Source: a virus. From it: a DNA stretch of 64,000 nt. A program made the translations under genes and the position numbers. Under the pieces are notes generated by a model that saw nothing but the letters and a program-made list of their open reading frames with translations, ran no database searches and was not told where the DNA came from. Positions 6,487 through 34,007 of the stretch are shown piece by piece (the stretch's first letter is position 1; each line of letters starts with the position of its first letter). The stretch spans positions 1 through 64,000 of the IMG/VR virus record IMGVR_UViG_3300022752_000024, one strand, 5' to 3'.

Positions 6487-7181
6487 GGAAAATCTCCTCT
6501 ACATTTTTCATTCATTATTTTGTTTCCATTCTCAAAAAATTCTTTAGTAACCGAACCTTCGTTTCCAGCTAATCGATAATTTACAGAATATTGTTTTGTG
6601 CAATCCCACTTTTGAAAATTTTGTGCAATTACTGAAAGAAACACTCTATCTTGACCCCAACCGCCATGCCATACTGATGCTAATTTTATCATAATTTCTT
6701 TGGGAACGCAATAGCTATTTGTATCAATATGATTTGCGCCATGATAAGTTTGCCATCTACCTAGACTTTCACAGTCATCATTGCAAATGAAGTTGCCGTG
6801 TTTATCACATATTTTTCTTAACGAATAGCACCAATCTAAATTATTATTTTTTATTGTTTCGACACACGATAAAACATGTTGTTTTTCGAACCAACAATCT
6901 TGATCCAAAAAAAGAACATAATCTTCGTTGATTAGGTGAGAGAATGCTGCGTAGATTCTATGACCATAGAATCCATTAGCTCCCACGTTTTCAGGAAGGT
7001 AACATACTTTAAAATTTGGATTTCCTAGATAGTTGTCGGCAATAGCTTTTACTTTGCCTCTGTATTGATCACCGTCGCATACCAAGTAGCACTTAGTCTG
7101 ATATGATTGATTTAACACACTCTCAATAGCAATACGAACTTCGGGTGCACCCGTAGTAGGTACAATAACAACAGCACTCAT
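6471..7181 (-). CDS. glycosyltransferase family 2
   Basis: IVPTTG..AIESVLNQSY, LVCDG and FLDQD motifs. Confidence 0.9.
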   Translation of the reverse strand: MSAVVIVPTTGAPEVRIAIESVLNQSYQTKCYLVCDGDQYRGKVKAIADNYLGNPNFKVCYLPENVGANGFYGHRIYAAFSHLINEDYVLFLDQDCWFEKQHVLSCVETIKNNNLDWCYSLRKICDKHGNFICNDDCESLGRWQTYHGANHIDTNSYCVPKEIMIKLASVWHGGWGQDRVFLSVIAQNFQKWDCTKQYSVNYRLAGNEGSVTKEFFENGNKIMNEKCRGDFPWQKI

Positions 7182-7191
7182 AATTTCTCCA

Positions 7192-7428
7192 TTATTTATC
7201 GCTTATACAATATCCACCTTTGAATTTATAAACACCAGAGAACATATTTACTTGTTCATATATTTCATTTTCATGGCACTTATATGGATCTTTAAAATTT
7301 ATTGTAGCATAATATATGCCATAACCTACACCAGCCAGTATCATAATAATTGGAATATATTTGAGATATTTTACAATCTCAGGCATCATACCTAATAGTT
7401 TAGGTAATATCTCCAATAGTTGTTTCAT
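7192..7428 (-). CDS. small membrane protein
   Basis: 78 aa with one hydrophobic helix (IPIIMILAGVGYGIYY). Confidence 0.6.
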   Translation of the reverse strand: MKQLLEILPKLLGMMPEIVKYLKYIPIIMILAGVGYGIYYATINFKDPYKCHENEIYEQVNMFSGVYKFKGGYCISDK

Positions 7429-7447
7429 TTCTTATCTTTACAGTCTA

Positions 7448-7726
7448 TCATTCTCTTGTTAGTTTAAGTATCTTCTCTATTTGTTTCTCTATGATAGGTT
7501 TACGATTAGGCCAGTAGATGTATTCTTTATCCGCAGTTTGATATAATTTTTGCAAAAATGGAATAATTAATTTTTCTACTTCATTTAATCTTGTTTTATA
7601 ATCATCTGCCGTTTCTGCTGTTTTGTTTATAATTGAATTATATTCTTCTTCAGATACAGCAGAAAAACCAAAATCGTTAGCATCATCTTGATATTTGTCA
7701 AATATGTTTTGTAGATTAATACTCAT
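7448..7726 (-). CDS. hypothetical protein
   Basis: 92-aa ORF coupled to the upstream gene by ATGA overlap. Confidence 0.65.
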   Translation of the reverse strand: MSINLQNIFDKYQDDANDFGFSAVSEEEYNSIINKTAETADDYKTRLNEVEKLIIPFLQKLYQTADKEYIYWPNRKPIIEKQIEKILKLTRE

Positions 7727-8445
7727 TTAATAGACCTAGCTTTCAATGCTTTTAAATAGTCTTTATCGTCCAAATCTGCATCTGATTTCGTGAGAGTACC
7801 TTTTACTGCTTGGATAGCTGTCGTAAAACGATAATTATATATTGGTGTACTTCCGCCACGTTTTAATCTTATACGTAATTTTAATTGCAGATCAAACTCT
7901 GGAACTCCTAATTTTGCCTTATCTCTTCCCATGTAATATAATCCATAACCACCTATTTGTATATAATATGTGTCTTTTGAATTATAATATTTTGCTACAC
8001 TATCATTTGGAATGTTTATAAATTTATCTTTAAAATTTTTATAATCATAATCAACATCTGTTTTTTTAAATTGACTAGGTGAAACTATGAATTTTCTTGG
8101 TGGATTTGGACCCCACTCTCTTGTCACAATTTTTGTCACTCCAATAGCAGTTAAAAACTCTCTCATTTGTTCTGCTGAAGCTGTTTTAGCTCCACCAAGA
8201 ATCCAACCTTTTCCTTTTTTATTTAGAGTTCCTAAATCATAATCTAAAGAACCTTGCCCAAAATCTACATTTAAGTCCAATTTCACTTCAACTTTGTAAT
8301 CTTGACCTTGATATGTGATTTGAGCATCTGGAGCATTTGAATCTGATCCTGCAGGTTGAAATGATTTTTTCTGTACTCCTGCTTTTTTCAGATTATCATT
8401 TAAGGTTCTCTCGTAAAGAATACCTTTATTTTCTGATGCTGCCAT
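7723..8445 (-). CDS. PD-(D/E)XK restriction-endonuclease-like nuclease
   Basis: GILYE..PDAQITYQGQDYKVEVK fits E..PD..ExK; GGAGG SD; late promoter directly upstream. Confidence 0.6.
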   Translation of the reverse strand: MAASENKGILYERTLNDNLKKAGVQKKSFQPAGSDSNAPDAQITYQGQDYKVEVKLDLNVDFGQGSLDYDLGTLNKKGKGWILGGAKTASAEQMREFLTAIGVTKIVTREWGPNPPRKFIVSPSQFKKTDVDYDYKNFKDKFINIPNDSVAKYYNSKDTYYIQIGGYGLYYMGRDKAKLGVPEFDLQLKLRIRLKRGGSTPIYNYRFTTAIQAVKGTLTKSDADLDDKDYLKALKARSIK

Positions 8446-8466
8446 AGTTCCTCCAAGTTATTGGAC

Positions 8467-8474
8467 TATTTATA
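8467..8474 (-). promoter_or_regulatory. T4-type late promoter (TATAAATA) ahead of the nuclease and sugar island
   Basis: Exact TATAAATA on minus strand overlapping the gp41 stop. Confidence 0.65.
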
Positions 8475-9873
8475 CTTTAAAACCTGCAAATTTTTTCTTT
8501 GTGTTTTTGGGTTGTTCACGATCACCAAAAGAATTTAATGGCTTATTATCTATTTTTCCAGCATCTACGATACCATCTTGAGCAGATTGCTCAACGTCAA
8601 ACAGTCTCATTTTTGCTCTATCAATACCTAAAGCAAATCTCTTATGTGTTGTGGGATCAGAATATCTATTCTTCAACTGTTTGACCATGATCTGACCAAG
8701 TGCTTCAAGTTCTTCTGAAGTAATCAATGCAAACATCAAGTCTGCTGTAGCGGGCAAACCAAAAGACTCACTCGTATCTTCGAGTCCTGGGTCGGAACTT
8801 GTAAAACCACTTCTCGTTGTTTGTGTAGCAGATACAATTGGTACTGAGAATTCAACGGCAAGACCTCGCAGTTCTTCTGCGATGGCTTTAACATAAGTGT
8901 AGCTGTTGACATTTGCTCCGGCTTTGACTCTAGCGGAGGAACAAATATTAAGATAATCAATAAAAATAATATCAGGAAGAAAATTTTTCTTGAGATGGAG
9001 TTCATTAAGTAGAGTTCTAAAGTGAATTGTTGAGGCAGATGCGGTTGGATATTCTTTAATGATTAATTTTCCAGTAGTATTTGTTCTAACTCTCTGAACT
9101 TTTTTATCATACATCTCTTTCGATAGTAGCATCAGATCGTCAACAGTAACATTTAAGAGATTTGCATCAATTCGTTCTGCAATTTTTTCTTCTGCCATCT
9201 CTAAGGTAATATAGAGAACATTCTTTCCTTGAACCATACAACCTGCTGCAACATGACACATAAACAATGACTTACCAACACCAGTGCCTGCAAGAGCAAT
9301 ATTGAGAGTCTTGATTGGAAGTCCGCCTTTTGTGATTTTGTTGAAATACTCTAGATCAAAAGGAATGCGTTCTTCTTTTCTATGATAGAATTCGTATCGA
9401 TCATCTGCATTTTCTAGATAATCATGACCCACGTTAGTATCGAATCCAACAGCAAGAGCATCTGCAAGAATTTTAGGAATTGCACCTTTGTCTTGAGTCT
9501 TATCTTTACCATCAAGAATAGAAATTGATCCAAGGACAGCATTGTAAATAGCTCTCTCTTGACAGAATTGTTCTGTCTTGTCGATCAGCCATTGTACCTT
9601 AGTGTCCTCAGATTTATTCTGTTCGATTTCTTTTACATATTCCTCACAACGACTTAATTCATCACTCGTTAAATTTTTTCTTTCTCTAAGGGCGATGATT
9701 AAGGTTTCAAAGTTTGGTGTAGTGTTATATGAGTTAACAAAATTTGCAACTTCATCAAATAGAGTCTTCTCTGTTCTGTCCGAAAAGTATTCTGGTTTTA
9801 TGAAAGGAATAACTTTACGTAGATATTCTTCATTGTGTACCAGGTTGGTCAATATCGTCTGTTCCAGCTTCAT
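8470..9873 (-). CDS. gp41: replicative DNA helicase
   Basis: ALAGTGVGKS Walker A, YITLEMAE, IDYLNI, SATQTTR, SESFGLP. Confidence 0.97.
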   Translation of the reverse strand: MKLEQTILTNLVHNEEYLRKVIPFIKPEYFSDRTEKTLFDEVANFVNSYNTTPNFETLIIALRERKNLTSDELSRCEEYVKEIEQNKSEDTKVQWLIDKTEQFCQERAIYNAVLGSISILDGKDKTQDKGAIPKILADALAVGFDTNVGHDYLENADDRYEFYHRKEERIPFDLEYFNKITKGGLPIKTLNIALAGTGVGKSLFMCHVAAGCMVQGKNVLYITLEMAEEKIAERIDANLLNVTVDDLMLLSKEMYDKKVQRVRTNTTGKLIIKEYPTASASTIHFRTLLNELHLKKNFLPDIIFIDYLNICSSARVKAGANVNSYTYVKAIAEELRGLAVEFSVPIVSATQTTRSGFTSSDPGLEDTSESFGLPATADLMFALITSEELEALGQIMVKQLKNRYSDPTTHKRFALGIDRAKMRLFDVEQSAQDGIVDAGKIDNKPLNSFGDREQPKNTKKKFAGFKV

Positions 9874-24528: not shown

Positions 24529-25206
24529 TTATCCTTTAAAATTTGTTGCATCTTTTTCAGTAGTGATCCAATATTCAATGGAATCTTTAACATTTTTGAA
24601 GTGTGCTATACCTTTTGACGAAATACTAACTTGATATGCTCCAGGAATCATTTTTAGATTTTCGGTTTTAAATACGGCACAAAACTCTTTATCGGTATCT
24701 CCAAGATCAAGAGAGTTTGCATGAGCGGCATCACTGCTAGTATCAAATGATGTAATTTTCAGTTTATTTTCATTACCTATAATTGCAACATTTGGTGATT
24801 GTAATACGTTTGCAGTTCTCATAATCCAATCATAATCGTCAGATGAAAGTTCAAATGAAATTTCTACAGACGGAAGAACGATTGCCTTCTCAGGTGGAGT
24901 TACAATAAATTGTTTATCTGTCACTCGATATTTAATTTTACTACGACCACCTAGAGATTTAATATACACATGCTTATCATCAAAATCCAATTCTGACGCA
25001 TCTTTACCTAAAGACAAGACAGAGAGAAAATTTGTCAAATCATAAATTGCAAATTCTTGAGGAAATTCATCTTTCAATACTGCTTGTGCAAGAACAGTTT
25101 TTGAAGATGAAACTGTTGAGATTGTACTGCCTTGCTTAAAAAGCAAGCCAGAATTAATTGTAGAAAAATTCTTTAATACTGATAGTGTTTCATTGGAAAG
25201 CTTCAT
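24529..25206 (-). CDS. gp45: sliding clamp
   Basis: MKLSNETLSVLKNFSTIN, FAIYDL, ENLKMIPGAY. Confidence 0.96.
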   Translation of the reverse strand: MKLSNETLSVLKNFSTINSGLLFKQGSTISTVSSSKTVLAQAVLKDEFPQEFAIYDLTNFLSVLSLGKDASELDFDDKHVYIKSLGGRSKIKYRVTDKQFIVTPPEKAIVLPSVEISFELSSDDYDWIMRTANVLQSPNVAIIGNENKLKITSFDTSSDAAHANSLDLGDTDKEFCAVFKTENLKMIPGAYQVSISSKGIAHFKNVKDSIEYWITTEKDATNFKG

Positions 25207-25523
25207 TTTATTTCTCCATTATACATTGGTTCATCTTTTGAGTACAGTATATCATGTTCAAACAAAAACATCAAGCAACACATAGCATGTGCCAAGTGAT
25301 GTATGCCTGATTCTGGATCAAGTTGTTCACCTTTTCGCCATGCCCAAATATGACGTTCCATGGCATCAAAATATCTGCGTTTTGATCCAGGTACTTTTTG
25401 CCAATTGTTTCTTGCATATTTTTGAGCACCAAAGGTAAGAACTTTAACCGTCTCCTCTAACGCAAGAGGAGGAAGCAAACCAAACTCCAATTTGCCTCCG
25501 TCAAATTTAGTACCTTTTTCCAA
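25203..25523 (-). CDS. dATP/dGTP diphosphohydrolase-domain protein (DUF5664-like)
   Basis: GTKFDGGK..LLPP..VLTFGAQKYARNNW..DPESGIHHLAHAMC. Confidence 0.85.
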   Translation of the reverse strand: MEKGTKFDGGKLEFGLLPPLALEETVKVLTFGAQKYARNNWQKVPGSKRRYFDAMERHIWAWRKGEQLDPESGIHHLAHAMCCLMFLFEHDILYSKDEPMYNGEIK

Positions 25524-26321
25524 TTACATCTCTCCAACATAATTTGCAATTGCTGGCATATCACCTTGGAAATGATATGTACCAATATGAGATGTTTTTA
25601 CCCATGGACATAGATGAATCTTTCCACCAATATTTCTCCACCATTGACAGAACATATAATCTTCTGACAAGTATCTCTCGGAAGATTTATCAATTACTGT
25701 GTCAAAATATGCATGAATATAACGAGAACCATCGAAGTGTGCTTGCCCAACGTGATCTGGTTTATACTTTAGTTGTGGATAAGCTTCTGCAAACTTTGGG
25801 AAAACTTCACGATTGACCATCATGAATCCAGTACCAATTTCAAGAACTTCAAGAGGTTCTGTTACTGAGAATTGTGCAGTTCCATGTACAGGATTAAAAA
25901 CAAAATCGCCTGCAAGTTTCTCAAGTTCACCTACATCAATGGCAGGGTTTCTTGTGACAGCAGACTTAATGTTTTTCCACTTAATTGCTTTCTTTGGATA
26001 TGGTGCACCAATAACATCTTTATCTAGGGCAAGTAATGCAATAACATCTCTAGGATCAAAACTGATATCAGAATCTAAAAACAAAAGATGTGTACAGTCT
26101 GAACGATTCAAAAATTCATCTACCAAATAGTTTCTTGCTCTAGTAATCAGAGATTCATTAAACAAGAAAGAAAATTTAGTAGCAATACCATATTGCATAC
26201 ACAGACCTTGAAGGTCAAGGCAAGCTTTCATATACATCCCATGATTCATACCACCATACATTGGTGTTGCAATGAATAAGCTTTTTTTTCTTAATTCTTC
26301 TACTTTAATTGAAATTTCCAT
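25524..26321 (-). CDS. GT-A fold glycosyltransferase-like protein
   Basis: FIATPMYGG, ESLITRARN, LFLDSDI (DxD), GTGFM, LSEDYMFC. Confidence 0.8.
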   Translation of the reverse strand: MEISIKVEELRKKSLFIATPMYGGMNHGMYMKACLDLQGLCMQYGIATKFSFLFNESLITRARNYLVDEFLNRSDCTHLLFLDSDISFDPRDVIALLALDKDVIGAPYPKKAIKWKNIKSAVTRNPAIDVGELEKLAGDFVFNPVHGTAQFSVTEPLEVLEIGTGFMMVNREVFPKFAEAYPQLKYKPDHVGQAHFDGSRYIHAYFDTVIDKSSERYLSEDYMFCQWWRNIGGKIHLCPWVKTSHIGTYHFQGDMPAIANYVGEM

Positions 26322-26338
26322 TTAATCCTCATGGGTGT

Positions 26339-26366
26339 AAAAAAAGGAGACCATATGGTCTCCTTT
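26339..26366 (-). terminator. intrinsic terminator
   Basis: AAAGGAGACCATATGGTCTCCTTTTTTT. Confidence 0.8.
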
Positions 26367-26376
26367 CGATTCAAAA

Positions 26377-26646
26377 TTAACCGGCAAATGAGAAGCCGTT
26401 TTCGATTGCAGATTGAACTAACTTACGTGTAGGTGTACCCAAACGATAGAATTTAGCTTTGCTGCCATCTTGAAGCGTTTTGATATTTGTGTAGATGCAA
26501 TGACCTTCTTTGCGAAGTTCTTCAATTCGGGCAGAAACATTTTGCACACCAAAACGGCGTTGTGCTTGTTTCACGGTAAAGGTGTTGTAGCCTTCAGTTT
26601 TTTTCAAAGCAGCCAACATACGGGCTTTTGCGGATAGTTTGGTCAT
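26377..26646 (-). CDS. winged helix-turn-helix DNA-binding protein
   Basis: TVKQAQRRFGVQNVSARIEELRKEGHCI..YRLG; AGGAG SD before MTKL. Confidence 0.8.
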   Translation of the reverse strand: MTKLSAKARMLAALKKTEGYNTFTVKQAQRRFGVQNVSARIEELRKEGHCIYTNIKTLQDGSKAKFYRLGTPTRKLVQSAIENGFSFAG

Positions 26647-26709
26647 AATAAAACTCCTAATAAAAAATAATAAAAATAAAATACCTTGCAATGAATAGCA
26701 AGTTTTCAC

Positions 26710-26738
26710 ATCATAACATTATATATTAATAATGTCAA
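26710..26738 (-). promoter_or_regulatory. sigma70 promoter for the HTH gene
   Basis: TTGACA-17nt-TATGAT with extended TG. Confidence 0.75.
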
Positions 26739-26755
26739 TGAATTTTTTGGTGAAC

Positions 26756-28327
26756 TTACGGCTTATAGAATATAAACACCGGTTCATATTTTAACCACAT
26801 ACCATTTACCTTACAGAAGTTCTTGGCTTTTGGTAAACCAGTATCCGGATCAACTCGATTACCGCCAGGCATTTGAGCCAAAGACATTTTTAGTTTACCT
26901 TTATAAACCATACCAAGTTCTTCTAGAATCTTTCTACTATCTTCTTCAAGAGGCAACATATCACCTCCAAATACAACATCACTAATATTCCAAAGGAGAT
27001 AACGGTCAGAGCGTAACCATTCCACAGCAGTTTCGAGCGTTGGTCGTAAGAAACCGTTTCTCCATTCTTCATATTGACCAAACTTCTTGTATGATTGTGT
27101 TGGATCTTCTGAGTACGCTTCTTTAGCAAAATAAGGTGGTGAAGTAAATACCAAATCAAGTTTGCCTTTATGCTTTTGAAATCTTGGGTCATCTCTTATT
27201 ACTTCTGATCCAAGTTGGTAGATTTCTGTTTCTGTGTGGGAATGTTCGTCTGCCCATAAGCCGCCTTTATTGACATGATTACGGTAGAATTCAGCGATCT
27301 CAAGATATTTTGTGCGACCAGAAGTAGTGTTATGGTCAGTATTGGGATCAGTACCAATATAGAGAATGTTGCGGTCATCACAAATAGACATAGCACCCAA
27401 AAGGCGACCACCCCAACCGCTAGAAGGATCATAGATACGAATCTTATCTTGTCCCACAAGATGTTCAGTGAATTTTTCATATAAGTATTTTGCTGTTAGT
27501 GGAGGAAAATTGACAGCGTATTGGCAAAACGATACACGAAAAGCTTTAAGCCCGACAGGAAACAATTTTTGTTTATATTGATATGGTCTAATAGCATAAT
27601 GTTCTGATTTAGAATAATCAACATTTGTTTTACACTTTTCTGGTATATTTAAAGTTTCGATGTCATCTTTGTGTAAAACAAGATACTTTTGATTTTTAAG
27701 TTCTTCATTATATCCAGTGTACTCTTTGTCAATATCTTTAGGTTGTAACCAATAATCCCACTTACCTTGTTTCCTGAATTCGTTTTCGAAAGAATTAATC
27801 CAGCTAGAAGCATCATTGGATACTGGAAGATATCCATAATGTTCACGTTCATCTGCCTTAGCAACAAAAGAATAATGATAAAAAGAGTCACGTTTAAAAT
27901 GACGGGAAGCATATGTGACAAATGTATCAAGAAGTTCATCCTTCGCAAAATAATCATAAATTGATTTACCATCGTCTTTTTTCGTATAATTGATGCGAGT
28001 TTTCATCATGGTAGGAAACCATTGATTAACTGCATTGCCAATTACACTAGTATTTCTGATGACATCTTTTTCGCCTGTTAGTTCATCCACTACTTCAAAC
28101 TTGTGAACAGGAAAACTGTGCATTTGATTGAATTGGTCGATGATTTCATTTTCATCGTAACCAACTCTAGGCGGGAGATTATGATTGTCCCATAAATCTA
28201 CAACAGTTTTTCGAAGGTCTATGATCCACACACGAAATTCGTCTTTTGACATCCAAAGAACTTCTTCAAAATATTTATTAACTGGTGATTCTAGGAGTTC
28301 ACGATTTTTTTCATAAAACCAGGTCAT
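26756..28327 (-). CDS. amino (N6-A/N4-C) DNA methyltransferase-like protein with a long N-terminal extension
   Basis: IYDPSSGWGGRL (SAM motif I), YIGTDPN, DLVFTSPPYF (motif IV), YEPVFIFYKP. Confidence 0.85.
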   Translation of the reverse strand: MTWFYEKNRELLESPVNKYFEEVLWMSKDEFRVWIIDLRKTVVDLWDNHNLPPRVGYDENEIIDQFNQMHSFPVHKFEVVDELTGEKDVIRNTSVIGNAVNQWFPTMMKTRINYTKKDDGKSIYDYFAKDELLDTFVTYASRHFKRDSFYHYSFVAKADEREHYGYLPVSNDASSWINSFENEFRKQGKWDYWLQPKDIDKEYTGYNEELKNQKYLVLHKDDIETLNIPEKCKTNVDYSKSEHYAIRPYQYKQKLFPVGLKAFRVSFCQYAVNFPPLTAKYLYEKFTEHLVGQDKIRIYDPSSGWGGRLLGAMSICDDRNILYIGTDPNTDHNTTSGRTKYLEIAEFYRNHVNKGGLWADEHSHTETEIYQLGSEVIRDDPRFQKHKGKLDLVFTSPPYFAKEAYSEDPTQSYKKFGQYEEWRNGFLRPTLETAVEWLRSDRYLLWNISDVVFGGDMLPLEEDSRKILEELGMVYKGKLKMSLAQMPGGNRVDPDTGLPKAKNFCKVNGMWLKYEPVFIFYKP

Positions 28328-29436
28328 TGTAATATTATCTCTTTTAGGTTAGGGGTAACTTTAACATCGACAACCAAATGTATTCTATTTTGGTCGCCTT
28401 CATTAATTACTGTATGTGGTTTACGAGTGTCAAGTACCCAACACTCACCAACTTTCATATTCACTTCTTTTTTATTACCATTTGGTTCCCACACACCAAA
28501 TCTTACTCTCTCGTTAGTTTGTATAGGAAAATGCAACCTACTAATATTCCCAATATTGCAACCAGAATCCGGATCAACTTGGTCTGTGTGTCGTGTAAGC
28601 TCTCCACCACCAGGCATAAGCTGCATAAACCTAATACGATGTAATTCTGCATCACCCAAGAATTGCAGTAACTCATTAACTTCTGGAAATTCATTACGAA
28701 GGTATGTATCTTGAAGATAAAATTCTTCATCTTTGTGTTCTTCTTTCCATTTTTTGCTCATTTCAATCGGTTTCTCAATACTCATAATATCTGGTGTATA
28801 ACCACGTAGAGAAATTGCAGACCAAGATTTTTTCTTGTTATAGTTGCTGTAGTGATTTTGGAATTTGATATTGAGATTTTCTAATTTGACTTTGATTCTT
28901 GCAAGTATATCAGAGTCTACATCAATTGTCAATTGTTTAACGGAAATATTTTCTACCGGATCTAAATATGGATGAGTTCTTGGTACCAAAACATTTTCAG
29001 AATTTTTAAAGTATACAGCATAAATTTCTCCAAATGTGGTAATCTTGCTTCCTACATAATCAAAGTAATTTTGTGCAATCGATCTGGTAGTTTTATCTTC
29101 AGCCCAAACATATAGCCAAGTATTACCTTCTGCCTGTTCGCAAACATCTTCAATATAATCATCAGTACCACGAAGTTTAGTAATAACATAATCACCAGGC
29201 ACCTTAGCACCAATAGTGATACCAGAATACATGGTAATTGGAGATGATTTACTTACCTTAGTTTTAACATATGAACCATCATTGTCAATAGTCAGATGAC
29301 CGTTATGTAAATCTTCAGCTATGTTATTTTTCTTGTATTCTGCAAAAGGAGAGTCTGCAAACTTATTATAATCTGCGTAAATAGTCTCAAGACTTTTGAG
29401 GTAGTCCAGTTCGTACCCGTGTTGCCAATTTTTCAT
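28324..29436 (-). CDS. 2OG-Fe(II) oxygenase (Asp/Asn beta-hydroxylase-like) with an N-terminal degenerate GNAT-like region
   Basis: RIRFMQLMPGGGELTRHTD (HxD), RLHFPIQTN, DTRKPHTVIN..RIHLVVD; N-half TWLYVWAEDKTTRSIAQNYFDYVG resembles a GNAT C-terminus. Confidence 0.8.
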   Translation of the reverse strand: MKNWQHGYELDYLKSLETIYADYNKFADSPFAEYKKNNIAEDLHNGHLTIDNDGSYVKTKVSKSSPITMYSGITIGAKVPGDYVITKLRGTDDYIEDVCEQAEGNTWLYVWAEDKTTRSIAQNYFDYVGSKITTFGEIYAVYFKNSENVLVPRTHPYLDPVENISVKQLTIDVDSDILARIKVKLENLNIKFQNHYSNYNKKKSWSAISLRGYTPDIMSIEKPIEMSKKWKEEHKDEEFYLQDTYLRNEFPEVNELLQFLGDAELHRIRFMQLMPGGGELTRHTDQVDPDSGCNIGNISRLHFPIQTNERVRFGVWEPNGNKKEVNMKVGECWVLDTRKPHTVINEGDQNRIHLVVDVKVTPNLKEIILQ

Positions 29437-30001
29437 TTGCTTTTTTCATCCTCATAACAAGTTTGTCTCGTTTTTGTTTTCCAGTCTTTAACGCCAAAGG
29501 TTTAGCTTTACTTGTATAAACTATTCCGTTTAGATGATCGAGTTCATGTAGGAAACATCGAGCGGTAATACCAGAATATTTGGCTTGTTTTATTTCACCA
29601 TGATAGTCTTGATATTCTACCTGAATAGTATCTGGTCTAGTTATATTTAGGAATAAAAATGGAAAAGATAAACAACCTTCTTGCATGTGTACCAAATTTT
29701 CTGACATAGAGATAATCTTTGGATTAAAGTGTGCGACATAATTACTGCCGGCTCCCATCACAAATACTCTATATCGAAATCCACATTGATTTGCAGATAA
29801 TCCTAATCCATTATAATACTTGCAAGTTTCTACTAATTGAGAAGCGAATGTTATAGGATTAACTGGAGAATTTGCGAATTCAAATTCTGGTAATATTTCT
29901 TGAAGAATTGGATCTTTAGAGTCAACTAATGGAAATAACTTAATTTGTTGAAACTTAGAGGTGTCCTCTGCTTCAGTATCAAATTTAAAAATTTCACTCA
30001 T
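29387..30001 (-). CDS. def: peptide deformylase
   Basis: GLGLSANQ, EGCLS and HELDHLNG motifs. Confidence 0.95.
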   Translation of the reverse strand: MSEIFKFDTEAEDTSKFQQIKLFPLVDSKDPILQEILPEFEFANSPVNPITFASQLVETCKYYNGLGLSANQCGFRYRVFVMGAGSNYVAHFNPKIISMSENLVHMQEGCLSFPFLFLNITRPDTIQVEYQDYHGEIKQAKYSGITARCFLHELDHLNGIVYTSKAKPLALKTGKQKRDKLVMRMKKANEKLATRVRTGLPQKS

Positions 30002-31713
30002 TTTGCTATCCTTGAAAAGTTATTCTTTTTCTCAAATCGAATCACCGACCTAAATTTGTCAAATAATTGGTCACCTTTATGTGAAATGACAAATACATTC
30101 GTGTCTTGTCCAATATCATACATTAATTTTAAAAACTCATCAGTACCTACAGTATCTAGGCTGCTATCAAACACTTCATCTAAAATTAACAAGTTTGTAT
30201 TGACGCTATTCTTTAGTTTTGCTATCTGTCGCCACGTAAACAGTATAGCTAAATCAATACGCATTTTCTCGCCTTCAGAGAAGTTATGATAACTAAAATC
30301 ATCTCTATGACGAGACTTAATCGTTTCTTCAAAATTTTCATTTAAGTTAAAGTTAATAAACGAATCCATTGCAGTCAAATACTTGTTAATCAACTTATTC
30401 ATGATTGGAAGATATTGTTTGATAATCTTCGTTTTGATACCAGTATCTTTCAATAATATTCCTGCAAACTCATAATATTGCTTTTCATCTGCTAGTTGTT
30501 TTTGTTTTTCAACAAGACCGGCAAGTTGCTCTCGTAACTCTTTAAGCTTTGTATTCTCTTCCTCAAGGTTATCTTTTCTGGTTGAGAGTTCTGTAATTTC
30601 TGCATTAAGTTTAGCCACGTATTTGTTGATTGCTGTAATCGATGCATTATGTTTTATTACCTCAGAGTTATGTTCAGATATGTGGTTAATTATTTTTTCG
30701 ATATCTTTGAGTCTTTTAGTTGCAGCTTCGTATTGATTTTTGATTTCCTGGACTCCAGTGCTGACTTCTCCTTTTGCTTGATTGTTTCTATCAAGTTCTC
30801 CAGCTCTGAACGTGTCATCGATATGCTGCTTGCACGTTGGGCAGTTGTCGTTTTGCTCATAAAATAATAACTCCTTTTCTATCTTCTTCAATCTAGATTC
30901 CAGTTTAGATTCTAGTGTAACAAGTTTACCGCTTTTCTTTTTTACAGATTCATGATCTTGAATCTTACTACCAAGAACATCGATGTGTTTTTGAATCGAT
31001 ACGATATCTTTGTTTAGGTGAAACATTTGCGTCTCTGATTTTGTAATTTCTTCTTTCTTCTTTTCAATTTCAGTATCGTTGTGTTTCTTATGTTCCTCGA
31101 TATTCATTTTCTGTAGATTGATTTTCTCCGCAGTCAAATCCATGTCATATTTCAACCGAGTATTGTTATCTTTTATCTCAGACATTTTTTGTTTTACCAA
31201 ACCATTCATGCTAGAGAAGATTTGGATGTCAAGTAAATCTTCAATAATACCTCTACGATCAGTAGCAGATAATTGCATGAATGGAGTAAATGATGCAGAA
31301 CCAAGAATAACAATCTGTGTAAAAGACTTGAAATTTAATTTAAGTATATTCTTTTCTAGAACTTCTTGATAATCTCTTGATGCAGCATCTTGATTCAGCA
31401 GCTTACCTTCTGCATAAATTTCAAAGATATTCGGTTTAATTCCACGAATAATTTTGTATTCTTTTTTACCGACTGTAAATTCAATCTCAACGATACAATC
31501 TTTTTCATTGATTGAATTTGGTAATTGTGGTTTGTTGATTTTTCGAAAAGGTTTACCAAATAAACCAAAGGTCAATGCATCAAGAATTGTTGATTTTCCT
31601 GATCCATTTGTACCAATAATAAGTGTATTTGGTGAACGTGTGAAATCAATTTCTGTAAACCAGTTACCGGTAGATAGAAAATTTTTCCATCTGACCTTAG
31701 AGAATATTATCAT
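29998..31713 (-). CDS. gp46: recombination endonuclease ATPase subunit (Rad50-like)
   Basis: GTNGSGKST, CPTC hook, FSEGE, LDEVFD. Confidence 0.97.
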   Translation of the reverse strand: MIIFSKVRWKNFLSTGNWFTEIDFTRSPNTLIIGTNGSGKSTILDALTFGLFGKPFRKINKPQLPNSINEKDCIVEIEFTVGKKEYKIIRGIKPNIFEIYAEGKLLNQDAASRDYQEVLEKNILKLNFKSFTQIVILGSASFTPFMQLSATDRRGIIEDLLDIQIFSSMNGLVKQKMSEIKDNNTRLKYDMDLTAEKINLQKMNIEEHKKHNDTEIEKKKEEITKSETQMFHLNKDIVSIQKHIDVLGSKIQDHESVKKKSGKLVTLESKLESRLKKIEKELLFYEQNDNCPTCKQHIDDTFRAGELDRNNQAKGEVSTGVQEIKNQYEAATKRLKDIEKIINHISEHNSEVIKHNASITAINKYVAKLNAEITELSTRKDNLEEENTKLKELREQLAGLVEKQKQLADEKQYYEFAGILLKDTGIKTKIIKQYLPIMNKLINKYLTAMDSFINFNLNENFEETIKSRHRDDFSYHNFSEGEKMRIDLAILFTWRQIAKLKNSVNTNLLILDEVFDSSLDTVGTDEFLKLMYDIGQDTNVFVISHKGDQLFDKFRSVIRFEKKNNFSRIAK

Positions 31714-32780
31714 TGTTCTGTATTGATTGCTTCTACGTAAAGTTCTTTAAGAATGTTTTTTAGCTTGCTGGCATCTAAACTATCATCTTGGATTGCATCC
31801 ACATAATTGTTTAAGATAGTGAGAGTGTCTTCAGCTTGATCAATTATATCATTATTAACACCTTCTGTCAAGTCTGTAAAGTCCTCAACAATGGTAATAT
31901 CGGCTGGGTTTGTTTGGTAAAGATTGTTGATGAATACATCGAACAAGTATGGATTAGTTTTATTTAATACCACAACCTTAACAAATTTATTGGTATATGG
32001 CGTCATATCATGGTTAGATATTTCTTTAATCTCTGATTCTTTATCATTATAAATGACTTTATGAAACATTACATTAGGGTTCTCAACAAATACAAGGTGT
32101 CGAGTATCAAGATCAAAAATATGGAAACCACGAGGATCCTTATAGTCTTGCCATGTAAGTTCATATGGGTTACCCAAGTAGTAAATCCCATTAGCAGAAG
32201 ATTTATGATGATAGTGCCCACTAAAAGTAAATTCAAACTTGCGGAAAATTTCACGATTTAATCCTTCTTCTGATGGCATTCCTTTATGCATTGCAAACCC
32301 TGCAATTTCAAAATGACCCATACAGATATCAGAAGTTGACTCTTTAATGAACTGCATAGCTTCATCATAATTATCTGAACATATCCATGGTATCATACAA
32401 ATTTGATGTGAACCTACATGAATATGTTCTGGGCTATCAATCACATGAATGTTACCATATTCTTGTAGTAGCAAATCGACCGAATTAACATCATTGGTAT
32501 TCTTGAAATATGTATCATGATTACCAGCTAACATGAATACTTCAATACCTTCTTCATTTAAAATATCGAAGAACATCTCTTTGGTTCTTTTTAATGTGTA
32601 GAAGTTTACGTACTTTCTTCTATCAAAAGTATCACCAAGTATTAATACTTGGCGTATACCTTCTTCTCTTAATTTTGGAAAAAAAGTTTCTTTGTAAAAT
32701 TTTTCATAATAGTCCAAAAATACAAGAGCGTCATTCCTAGCTCCAAAATGCTGGTCCGTGATTATTGCTACTTTCGACAT
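31710..32780 (-). CDS. gp47: recombination endonuclease subunit (Mre11-like)
   Basis: TDQHFG, GDTFD, GNHD, SGHYH. Confidence 0.97.
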   Translation of the reverse strand: MSKVAIITDQHFGARNDALVFLDYYEKFYKETFFPKLREEGIRQVLILGDTFDRRKYVNFYTLKRTKEMFFDILNEEGIEVFMLAGNHDTYFKNTNDVNSVDLLLQEYGNIHVIDSPEHIHVGSHQICMIPWICSDNYDEAMQFIKESTSDICMGHFEIAGFAMHKGMPSEEGLNREIFRKFEFTFSGHYHHKSSANGIYYLGNPYELTWQDYKDPRGFHIFDLDTRHLVFVENPNVMFHKVIYNDKESEIKEISNHDMTPYTNKFVKVVVLNKTNPYLFDVFINNLYQTNPADITIVEDFTDLTEGVNNDIIDQAEDTLTILNNYVDAIQDDSLDASKLKNILKELYVEAINTEQ

Positions 32781-33229
32781 TCATTATATTCCTTATTCAT
32801 TTTTCGCAGTTTCAATGCTTCTGCATCATATACACGTTTACGTAAGGACGAACTACTGTAAGGATGTTCTCTTTCATGGTAATGTAATTCCATGCCATGA
32901 TCTAGGCACCATTGTTTACCAGTAAAATCTTTTGTTTTGTATTCGTCACCAAGAAAACGAATATCAATATGTTGAGTCTTTAGAATATTCAGTAAATCTT
33001 CTTCGGTATGGTATACAATAACTTCATCTACGTAACGACATGCGGAAACACACACATGTCTTTCATATACAGACATGATTGGTTTATTTTTTGTGTCAGG
33101 ACGATCTACTGTTGGGTCAACTTGAATAGCCACGATCAAATAGTCACAATGTCTCTTTTCTTCTTTAAGCATAGTAACATGCCCAGCATGAAACAAGTCA
33201 AATGTGCTACAATTAAATCCAATTTTCAT
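32768..33229 (-). CDS. cytidylyltransferase (TagD-like, HxGH family)
   Basis: STFDLFHAGH, RYVDEV, YSSSSLR. Confidence 0.9.
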   Translation of the reverse strand: MKIGFNCSTFDLFHAGHVTMLKEEKRHCDYLIVAIQVDPTVDRPDTKNKPIMSVYERHVCVSACRYVDEVIVYHTEEDLLNILKTQHIDIRFLGDEYKTKDFTGKQWCLDHGMELHYHEREHPYSSSSLRKRVYDAEALKLRKMNKEYNECRK

Positions 33230-34007
33230 TATTCAACTCCTTAATGCATTCATCAAGAGATTCATCAGTTGATCTAATCTTATAAACAGATTCTAACTTA
33301 TCAGTATTCAAAACACAGTTAGAACGAGGTGCAATTACTGAATTTTTAAATTGTTCTTCAGTAAACCACTCTTTGTTTAAACCCATCTTATCAGAAATTT
33401 TCTTTGTTGTTGTAGATCCTACATTACACAAATTGTAAATTCCATAGTCTGGTCTATTCTTATAGAAGAATACGGCAACTTTTGCAATATCATAAACACA
33501 ACTCACGGAATTTTCTTTATCGATCAGTTTATTATATTTGCTTAATTTTGTCAATAGACTTTTTGGATTATTTGTGTCACAAAACGGCATTCTTACTCTC
33601 ATTAGGTAAGATTTTTCCATATAATGACTAAGCAGTTCTTGTGCAAGAGTTTTGGATGCACTGTAGAATGATGCATTGTCAAAATTAAAGTTTGGTGTAT
33701 CTGTCTCTAACCAACCACCATCTTTGTAACCAGTATAAACGCAACCGGATAAAATATGCATAATAGGAACAGATGTTGTTCTTTCCAGATTCAATGGAAA
33801 CAAAACATTGCCTTCAATGGTTGTTTGTTTGTTATGTTCGCAGGCATCTACATTTGGAACACCAGTGTATCCTGCACAATTAATAATGTAACTTGTATCT
33901 GTAGGAACAGAGTCTTTGTGAGAAATCCAGTTATATTCTAAACCTTCTTGTTCCAATTCTTTTTGTATAAAACTTCCAATATAACCATGTCCAATCAATG
34001 TAATCAT
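33213..34007 (-). CDS. RmlD-like NDP-4-keto-6-deoxysugar reductase/epimerase
   Basis: GHGYIG, INCAGYTGVPNVDACE, SGCVY, YSASK, APRSNCVL. Confidence 0.88.
   Translation of the reverse strand: MITLIGHGYIGSFIQKELEQEGLEYNWISHKDSVPTDTSYIINCAGYTGVPNVDACEHNKQTTIEGNVLFPLNLERTTSVPIMHILSGCVYTGYKDGGWLETDTPNFNFDNASFYSASKTLAQELLSHYMEKSYLMRVRMPFCDTNNPKSLLTKLSKYNKLIDKENSVSCVYDIAKVAVFFYKNRPDYGIYNLCNVGSTTTKKISDKMGLNKEWFTEEQFKNSVIAPRSNCVLNTDKLESVYKIRSTDESLDECIKELNNENWI

Follow-up and report, generated by a model that had tools for sequence, protein, structure and literature searches.

An FTSPPY methyltransferase-fold protein and a GNAT-like/oxygenase fusion as a plausible DNA-modifying pair in a plastic slot between gp46 and gp45 of a freshwater T4-like phage

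The window analysed here comprises the first 64 kb (64,000 nucleotides) of the 142.9-kb IMG/VR record IMGVR_UViG_3300022752_000024, estimated to be 86% complete, from an uncultured freshwater (lake) T4-like phage. Between 24.5 and 32.8 kb, every gene is on the minus strand and closely packed, in the order gp47, gp46, def, OX, MT, HTH, GT, PF18909 gene, gp45, gp44, and gp62. Two of these genes are at the center of this work: OX (28324-29436), encoding a 370-aa oxygenase fusion, and MT (26756-28327), encoding a 523-aa methyltransferase-fold protein with the motif FTSPPY. The two are translationally coupled through an ATGA overlap. Downstream of MT lie a helix-turn-helix gene (HTH), a glycosyltransferase gene (GT), and the PF18909 gene, which precede the sliding-clamp gene gp45. 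Pfam and PHROG scans bear out the gene coordinates and domain assignments of a first-pass annotation made from the letters of the window, and the OX/MT overlap is real. That annotation had also joined OX, MT, GT, and the PF18909 gene into one methylate-oxidise-glycosylate pathway, a proposal that our comparison of relatives does not support. Two independent units occupy the interval from gp46/def to gp45, a plastic slot: unit A (MT with the variable genes upstream of it, here OX) and unit B (HTH, GT, the PF18909 gene, and gp45). A DNA-modifying role for the OX-MT pair is plausible, with DNA as the substrate suggested by context. A blastn search of the 4.2-kb region against GenBank phages gave no match, close relatives being found in IMG/VR and metagenomes only, and NCBIfam has no name for any of the five proteins.

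MT consists of a unique, conserved N-terminal domain of ~265 aa followed by a class I S-adenosylmethionine (SAM)-dependent transferase domain. Its motifs run in the order I to IV, with 'IYDPSSGWGGR' at residues 298-308 and 'DLVFTSPPYF' at residues 391-400; motif I (D300-P-S-S-G304-W-G-G307-R308) is glycine-rich and of the SAM-binding type. D300, G304, G307, R308, S396, and Y399 are invariant in 51 sequences down to 29% identity, and the prolines P397 and P398 each reach at least 90% conservation in the same set. In public metagenomes we found 3121 homologues of MT, and the 120 best listed are mostly ~520-530 aa long. In the AlphaFold2 model (pLDDT 92.4, built with 51 homologues), the top matches in Foldseek and VIA are without exception class I methyltransferases, with Z scores of 12.5-15.5. 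The one chain among the top 50 that we take to resemble DNA methylases is lmo1582 (2f8l), whose PDB title reads 'putative class I SAM-dependent methyltransferase'. The sole Pfam family touched by MT is PF01555 (DNA amino-methyltransferases), which aligns in the motif IV region only, and several homologues score above its cut-off (P0253, 31.9 bits; P0385, 30.3; P0262, 29.9). FTSPPY with a serine in motif IV is the form typical of cytosine-N4 DNA enzymes (PROSITE signature [LIVMF]-T-S-P-P-[FY]); m2G and glutamine methyltransferases have D or N in this motif. With the N4-cytosine and N6-adenine DNA methyltransferases of PF01555, MT has in common the class I fold, the glycine-rich SAM loop, and the exact F-T-S-P-P-Y motif IV. 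However, that family mostly models the permuted beta class, whereas MT has motif I before motif IV, and MT carries its own 265-aa N-terminal domain and no recognisable target-recognition domain. Searches of the PDB with the single MT sequence and with the 51-sequence profile returned only noise, an Atlas feature search with the N-terminal domain returned only unnamed viral clusters with scores up to 0.82, and no THUMP or other RNA-binding domain was recognised in MT.

OX combines a GNAT-like region (residues 1-165) with an Fe(II)/2-oxoglutarate (2OG) oxygenase of the AspH/proline-hydroxylase type (residues 166-370), in which PF05118 matches residues 186-359 (53.9 bits; cut-off 22.6). The iron triad H283-x-D285...H353 and the 2OG-binding R351 are intact and invariant in 37 homologues, and in the AlphaFold2 model (pLDDT 93.6, 37 homologues) the C-terminal half is a double-stranded beta-helix. 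The best Foldseek match is L-proline cis-4-hydroxylase (4p7w, E 1e-10), with further matches to the nucleoside-antibiotic hydroxylase 7v4f, AspH, proline 3-hydroxylase, and the EF-Tu prolyl hydroxylase (P4H/EF-Tu). The fold neighbours of OX act on amino acids and proteins; no TET, JBP, or AlkB chain is among its Foldseek top 50, and a Pfam scan of OX matched PF05118 and Cupin_2 only, without Tet_JBP (PF12851). AspH has a TPR domain, and OX instead has the GNAT-like N-terminal partner. That this region is GNAT-like, as the first-pass annotation held, is confirmed by hhalign: the family of the OX N-domain aligns over its full length to a stand-alone PF00583 GNAT (142 aa) from the same slot in relatives (probability 95.6%, E 1e-8, 130 columns), and the secondary-structure elements of the model follow one another in an order compatible with a GNAT. 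Within the OX gene, exactly at the boundary of its GNAT-like and oxygenase domains, is a promoter-like site at 28904-28932 (minus strand; TTGACA-N17-TATACT, 11/12 consensus positions, with TG). We rejected it as a functional promoter; it is present in only 3 of 29 relatives and is therefore probably non-functional, arising by chance or being specific to the lineage.

The slot was compared across 102 related IMG/VR loci, fetched through OX or MT, onto which thirteen window proteins were mapped. The frame gp47-gp46-def ... gp45-gp44-gp62 is constant across these loci (gp47-gp46-def in ~100). MT is present in every one of them, which is partly ascertainment, as loci were fetched through MT, and across the clade it is conserved at 66-90% identity versus 47-56% for gp46 and gp47; OX is missing or altered in many. 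Directly upstream of MT, the window's clade carries the fused GNAT-OX. Other loci carry the fusion together with a PLP-like (pyridoxal phosphate) protein of 245-275 aa, or a 200-aa oxygenase-only protein with a 142-aa GNAT, or a GNAT alone whose gene overlaps MT by ATGA, or other small genes between OX and MT; in loci L049-L056 the slot is empty, with a gap of 36 nt between def and MT. The OX-MT pair is a genuine, recurrent association. The 245-275-aa family, which lies between OX and MT (L071:7267-8004, L057:6003-6830, L059:7189-7995, and 17 further loci) and has no Pfam match, appears to be a divergent PLP fold-type-II enzyme, judging from a BLAST match (E 1e-7) to the PLP domain of the MT-PLP fusion P0385 and from the lysine motif RDDLxxxGSKxR. 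No PLP enzyme was found in the window's record by Pfam or by tblastn with four PLP queries, and the window is a reduced variant of the MT unit that lacks the PLP gene. Small proteins of the YAcAr (SLOG-family), DUF4326, and YunG-like types also fill the OX-MT slot in some relatives (L025:9140-9538, L069:7345-7992, and L069:6169-6627); all are nucleotide-centred domains.

Among GenBank phages, the nearest relative by gp46 is Methylophilales phage Melnitz (50.6%), followed by Stenotrophomonas phage DLP6 and cyanomyoviruses. The gp46-gp45 slot of Melnitz contains neither MT, OX, nor GT, and the interval is therefore highly plastic; DLP6 and Cr30 likewise hold other genes there. In the Melnitz slot (L111, 8716-12003) we observed a 'nucleotide modification associated domain' protein, def, an Hsp20 protein, and, directly before gp45, a DUF3310 protein. 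It seems common in this phage group for small genes of a putative nucleotide-hydrolase-like kind to precede gp45.

The comparative context of MT and OX points to DNA. Full-length MT homologues with 35-40% identity occur in Devosia, Limnohabitans, and alphaproteobacterial metagenome-assembled genomes, each preceded by a DUF3102-like gene (340-420 aa) so that the two form a cassette at the edge of integrated elements (L120, Devosia epidermidihirudinis, 6959-9527; L121, Limnohabitans sp. Jir61, 6946-9533; L118; L127). Their neighbours include integrases, a Type III mod/res pair, an Eco57I-like methylase, further DNA methylases, and a NOV_C protein. Judged by these neighbours, the setting of bacterial MT is that of a predicted mobile-element DNA methylase, and the MT family is carried by phages and integrative elements. 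In other MT homologues, a PLP fold-type-II domain is joined to one end or the other, giving three architectures (P0283, P0385, and P0329). Viral contigs scanned with P0283, which has the PLP fusion, gave no match. In one relative, a stand-alone PLP gene lies one gene upstream of MT; 349 GenBank phage records match it, mostly from ViI-like phages, and we regard it as a candidate of the ViI gp226 type, the orthology of the matched open reading frames to gp226 being putative. ViI and M6 use a PLP enzyme to decarboxylate amino acids carried on DNA bases, and PaMx11 has an acetyltransferase whose substrate is a DNA base (PMC8989533).

For OX, the link comes from the only GenBank phage member of its family, gp4 of Mycobacterium phage LilMcDreamy, which matches OX in its two-domain build (hhalign probability 99.9%, E 2e-33, 294 columns). 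The gp4 gene overlaps an amino-acid:DNA transferase gene (PF18724) and follows ParB-like and TGT/DpdA-like genes. Clusters of ParB, amino-acid:DNA transferase, and dioxygenase genes are established thymidine-hypermodification machinery (PMC13229309), and its gene content gives the LilMcDreamy operon the look of an uncharacterised pathway for DNA hypermodification, in which parts of the deazaguanine and thymidine types are combined. Within gp1-gp4, gp4 shares the architecture of OX, but its partner is the amino-acid:DNA transferase, not an FTSPPY transferase. The operon (L108, 1-3759) adjoins terminase genes.

Unit B begins behind a predicted sigma-70-type promoter at 26710-26738 (minus strand), between MT and the HTH gene, of the form TTGACA-N17-TGTTATGAT; its -10 box, TATGAT, is preceded by TG (extended -10), and 11 of the 12 consensus positions are matched. 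Relatives have 22 distinct MT-HTH intergenic regions, and 20 of these, despite divergent spacers, contain a promoter of the same form; the promoter in the window is predicted to head an HTH-GT-PF18909-gp45-gp44-gp62 transcription unit. The HTH gene (26377-26646; HTH_39, PF14090 E 7e-7; phrog_4973) starts with the ATG at 26646, behind GGAG; a GTG start at 26709 was rejected because this codon sits within the -10 box. Its product (89 aa, pI 10.3) is a small, basic, winged-helix protein that travels with GT, not with MT, in relatives. GT (25524-26321, 265 aa; phrog_1574 E 3e-59) has a weak Anp1 match (22 bits; cut-off 28.8), and its Atlas clusters are labelled 'putative Anp1'. Of its earlier designation as a GT-A glycosyltransferase, the DxD motif (D83-S-D85) stands, being invariant in 13 sequences including those of DLP6, Cr30, and phiM12; the PDB profile matches that align at this motif are weak (the GT-A protein STIV A197, E 0.16; GlfT2, E 1.3), and the label rests on these together. 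The PF18909 gene (25203-25523, 106 aa; PF18909 E 5e-36, 123 bits; phrog_801) starts at a TTG straight after the GT stop, with the Shine-Dalgarno sequence GGAGAG, and encodes the N-terminal domain alone of dATP/dGTP diphosphohydrolases (MazG-like). It overlaps gp45, the downstream anchor of the slot (24529-25206; phrog_223 E 6e-72), by ATGA, in agreement with the purine dNTP diphosphohydrolase-domain gene described at this position in the first-pass annotation.

The distribution of GT separates it from MT and OX. By tblastn, GT is found in 64 GenBank phage records, and in DLP6, Cr30, and phiM12 it occupies the same slot, between gp46 or def and gp45, with identities (58%, 53%, and 46%, respectively) that equal or exceed those of gp45, gp46, and gp47. 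Profile searches of these three complete genomes found neither MT nor OX. In the IMG/VR loci, GT is present wherever the contig reaches far enough, and MT and GT persist where OX is missing. The PF18909 gene is sporadic, occurring in about half of the loci and absent from many relatives that keep GT and MT. Many distant relatives have an insert of 4-6 kb between MT and HTH-GT (e.g., L087:9672-13310 and L071:9806-14868), whose genes are unrelated and encode a 750-793-aa protein without a Pfam match, an AAA_5/CbbQ-type ATPase (the two forming a cobT/cobS-like pair), and sometimes a GmrSD_N (DUF262) protein, as in L071. Extra modification genes had been suspected in this insert; its contents are instead the protein without a Pfam match, the AAA_5 ATPase, and sometimes GmrSD_N. 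GT is a long-established occupant of the gp46-gp45 slot in T4-like phages outside the T-even group, older than MT and OX. As it is well conserved in genomes that lack both, GT cannot depend on an acceptor made by MT or OX, and its substrate is independent of them. The variable slot genes with MT on one side, and HTH-GT(-PF18909)-gp45 on the other, are parted by a promoter and by inserts, and we therefore treat them as two units.

Upstream of unit A lie gp47 (31710-32780), gp46 (29998-31713), and the peptide deformylase gene def (29387-30001; PF01327 E 2e-35), which overlaps the start of OX by 50 nt and is the upstream neighbour of the unit. Inside the 3' end of gp47, and thus upstream of gp46-def-OX-MT, we observed a perfect 12/12 sigma-70 consensus at 31843-31871 (minus strand; TTGACA-N17-TATAAT with TG). 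No late promoter of the form TATAAATA is found within 22.3-40.2 kb, and unit A lies in an early-type replication cluster. Beside gp47, a TagD-like cytidylyltransferase gene (32768-33229) holds its place in ~20 related loci (49-92% identity), none of which has the RmlD-like gene that adjoins it in the window (33213-34007). We considered a cyanophage or pelagimyophage identity of the phage and rejected it: psbA and ribosomal protein S21 are absent from the record, and the nearest gp46 is that of Melnitz.

We propose, with about even confidence, that MT modifies an exocyclic amine of DNA and that the GNAT-OX fusion serves as an optional tailoring enzyme. Gene content, folds, catalytic residues, synteny, fusions, and contexts are observed, whereas that the substrate is DNA, which atom is modified, and in what order the steps run are inferred. 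After replication, MT would carry out a SAM-dependent alkylation of an exocyclic amine in phage DNA, most likely at cytosine N4 and possibly at adenine N6. The fusion would hydroxylate, and perhaps acylate, the group installed by MT, and unit B would be transcribed from its own conserved early-type promoter. Since MT occurs alone in phages and bacterial elements, it would be the installer and sufficient by itself. Because a GNAT, an oxygenase of the amino-acid-hydroxylase type, and a PLP enzyme repeatedly lie beside MT, the installed group may exceed a methyl. The first-pass annotation had OX oxidise an N-methyl group; the amino-acid and protein hydroxylases among its fold neighbours, the GNAT-like fusion, and the PLP partners in relatives fit an amino-acid-like side chain better.

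The scheme resembles the thymidine hypermodification of M6, ViI, and PaMx11 (Lee et al., NAR 2021, PMC8989533), which is modular and post-replicative, with one installer followed by interchangeable tailoring enzymes, as proposed here. Relatives of the window locus share with those phages a PLP fold-type-II enzyme and GNAT acetyltransferases, and fusions of pathway enzymes occur in metagenomes in both systems. In contrast to M6, ViI, and PaMx11, the record carries no dUMP/dCMP hydroxymethylase and no amino-acid:DNA transferase (a 5-hmdU DNA kinase was not searched for), the window has no PLP enzyme, and the oxygenase class is new to such pathways. Given that the candidate installer is an FTSPPY transferase dependent on SAM, an exocyclic amine is a more probable target than the C5-methyl of thymine. 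With the phage TET/JBP (5mYOX) systems (PMC8256090; PMC13229309), the locus shares a methyltransferase-fold enzyme and an Fe(II)/2OG oxygenase with a glycosyltransferase nearby; here, however, the oxygenase belongs to PF05118, MT is of the amino-methyltransferase rather than the C5 type, and GT is inherited independently of the pair.

Markers of other known routes were sought in the record. PF00303 (thymidylate synthase/dCMP hydroxymethylase) has no match in the whole 142.9 kb, which upholds the earlier remark that no gp42-type dCMP hydroxymethylase is seen between gp43 and uvsX, and is also absent from a 98%-complete relative and from DLP6. Neither TGT (PF01702) nor QueC (PF06508), markers of the 7-deazaguanine route, is matched in the record, and PurZ (adenylosuccinate-synthetase family) is likewise missing from it; TET/JBP (PF12851) and the amino-acid:DNA transferase (PF18724) gave no match there in searches run without a positive control. 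The Z-genome, 7-deazaguanine, 5-hmdU, and TET routes were accordingly set aside, their marker genes not being found in the 86%-complete record. DpdM was considered as a model for MT and rejected, as it is an unrelated DUF3109 protein.

Several other explanations have to be weighed against our proposal. The four-gene route, in which MT makes N6-methyladenine (m6A) or N4-methylcytosine (m4C), OX hydroxylates the N-methyl group, GT or an acyltransferase caps the resulting hydroxymethyl, and the PF18909 protein edits the purine dNTP pool, with an anti-restriction effect, draws on the clustering of the genes within 4.2 kb on one strand among replication genes, on the OX/MT overlap, on the absence of a gp42-type hydroxymethylase, and on the closest ~20 IMG/VR relatives, which keep all four genes together. 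Across wider relatives, however, the four genes assort independently: GT stands in the same slot of complete genomes without MT and OX, MT and GT persist without OX, the PF18909 gene comes and goes in a record without PurZ, and a conserved promoter, often with the 4-6 kb of cobS/cobT-like genes, lies between MT and HTH-GT. The fold neighbours of OX, amino-acid and protein hydroxylases rather than TET/JBP or AlkB, also speak against this route, as does the nature of its intermediate: N-hydroxymethyl adducts of exocyclic amines are labile hemiaminals and hence poor glycosyl acceptors. Given the independence of GT, the sporadic PF18909 gene, and the loss of OX, a methylate-oxidise-glycosylate sequence is therefore unsupported, and we consider the four-gene route very improbable. 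What survives of the first-pass idea is DNA modification through a non-TET, AspH-type oxygenase, as the pair is recurrent and its context points to DNA; the further GT and PF18909 steps fall away. Somewhat less improbable, a serious rival though still quite unlikely in our judgement, is that def, GNAT-OX, and MT act on the translation apparatus (tRNA, rRNA, or a translation factor), with MT as an m2G/m6A-type RNA or PrmC-like glutamine methyltransferase, the oxygenase as a protein hydroxylase, and the GNAT as a Rim-like acetyltransferase. The nearest fold neighbours of MT are indeed the tRNA m2G methyltransferases Trm11, TrmN, and Trm14 (Z 15.5-14.9), followed by generic Rossmann methyltransferases (Z 13-14), METTL5 (14.0), and PrmC (13.3); OX matches AspH and the EF-Tu prolyl hydroxylase, def overlaps OX, and the MT, OX, and GT proteins are all acidic (pI 5.6-6.1). 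However, the Z scores of the tRNA enzymes are barely above those of generic methyltransferases, and the fold therefore does not decide the substrate of MT. The lack of a recognised THUMP or other RNA-binding domain, the motif IV serine typical of cytosine-N4 DNA enzymes, the DNA methylases as the only Pfam match of MT, the integrases and restriction-modification genes beside its bacterial homologues, and the DNA-modification context in LilMcDreamy all argue against a target in translation.

A simpler possibility, which we hold to be rather unlikely but worth serious attention, is that MT is a plain orphan methyltransferase making m4C or m6A for restriction evasion, and that GNAT-OX is an auxiliary enzyme acting on a protein or metabolite, a neighbour by insertion. 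Methyl transfer is the default chemistry of the MT fold, one phage sub-clade has MT without OX or GNAT, as do bacterial mobile elements, where restriction-modification genes are its neighbours, and the slot is plastic, with other genes in Melnitz, DLP6, and Cr30. Against this stand the at least four different arrangements in which tailoring-type genes are coupled to MT through an overlap of 4 nt, the three architectures of MT-PLP fusions, the overlap of the LilMcDreamy OX-family gene with an amino-acid:DNA transferase gene, and a conservation of MT above that of gp46 and gp47, which is unusual for an orphan methylase. Another scheme, slightly less probable still, in which MT would not be a methyltransferase and which would be the most economical way to install a group larger than methyl, has MT transfer the 3-amino-3-carboxypropyl (ACP) group of SAM to a cytosine or adenine exocyclic amine in DNA, by analogy with MccD. 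In microcin C, the methyltransferase-fold enzyme MccD transfers this group from SAM and MccE is a PLP decarboxylase, and discadenine synthase performs a SAM-dependent ACP transfer to an adenine derivative (PMC10491745). Relatives of the window locus repeat the logic of the microcin C trio, in which a methyltransferase-fold enzyme is combined with a PLP enzyme and a GNAT on a substrate that contains a nucleotide. The C-terminal domain of MccE is a GNAT, and its decarboxylase has a different PLP fold. Under ACP transfer, phage DNA would gain an amino-acid side chain without a hydroxymethyl precursor, which in relatives the PLP enzyme would decarboxylate, the GNAT acetylate, and the AspH-type oxygenase hydroxylate; in the window, with no PLP gene, the product would be a hydroxylated, possibly acylated, carboxy-bearing adduct. 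The likeness is one of mechanism only, as MccD and MT have no detectable sequence relation, MccD (5FCD) is not among the top fold matches of MT, and the microcin C substrate is a peptidyl-nucleotide.

Our own proposal of an exocyclic-amine modification with optional tailoring also has evidence weighing against it, beginning with the tRNA-enzyme neighbours of MT and the acidity of the proteins described above. The window's MT scores 22.9 bits against PF01555, below the cut-off of 26.7; the LilMcDreamy link comes from a single genome at 29% identity; and OX and GNAT are dispensable across a whole sub-clade. As the window has no PLP gene, the inference from PLP-bearing relatives may not carry over to it. 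The fused GNAT-like domain has no Q/R-x-x-G-x-G/A acetyl-CoA motif, reading K-L-R-G-T-D-D at this position with only G90 conserved, whereas stand-alone GNATs retain the motif (Q-Q-G-S-G-N-A), and it may be a binding module rather than a catalyst. In addition, both aspartyl/asparaginyl beta-hydroxylase and deformylase have been reported among the core genes of pelagimyophages, with no connection drawn to DNA modification (PMC7029224).

A large clade of T4-like phages from lakes and other aquatic settings has MT as a core gene, conserved above gp46 and gp47; with more than 3000 homologues of MT in public metagenomes, unit A would represent a widespread route if it modifies DNA. The GT beside gp45, which cannot depend on MT or OX, needs an explanation of its own. 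If the proposal is correct, the route would need no hydroxymethyl-pyrimidine precursor and would bring to DNA two enzyme classes not so far seen to act on it: FTSPPY transferases, here with a new N-terminal domain, and AspH-type oxygenases, here joined to a GNAT-like domain. This would constitute a new branch of DNA hypermodification chemistry with new DNA-tailoring enzymes, and would affect how the DNA of these viruses is read by sequencing and by restriction.

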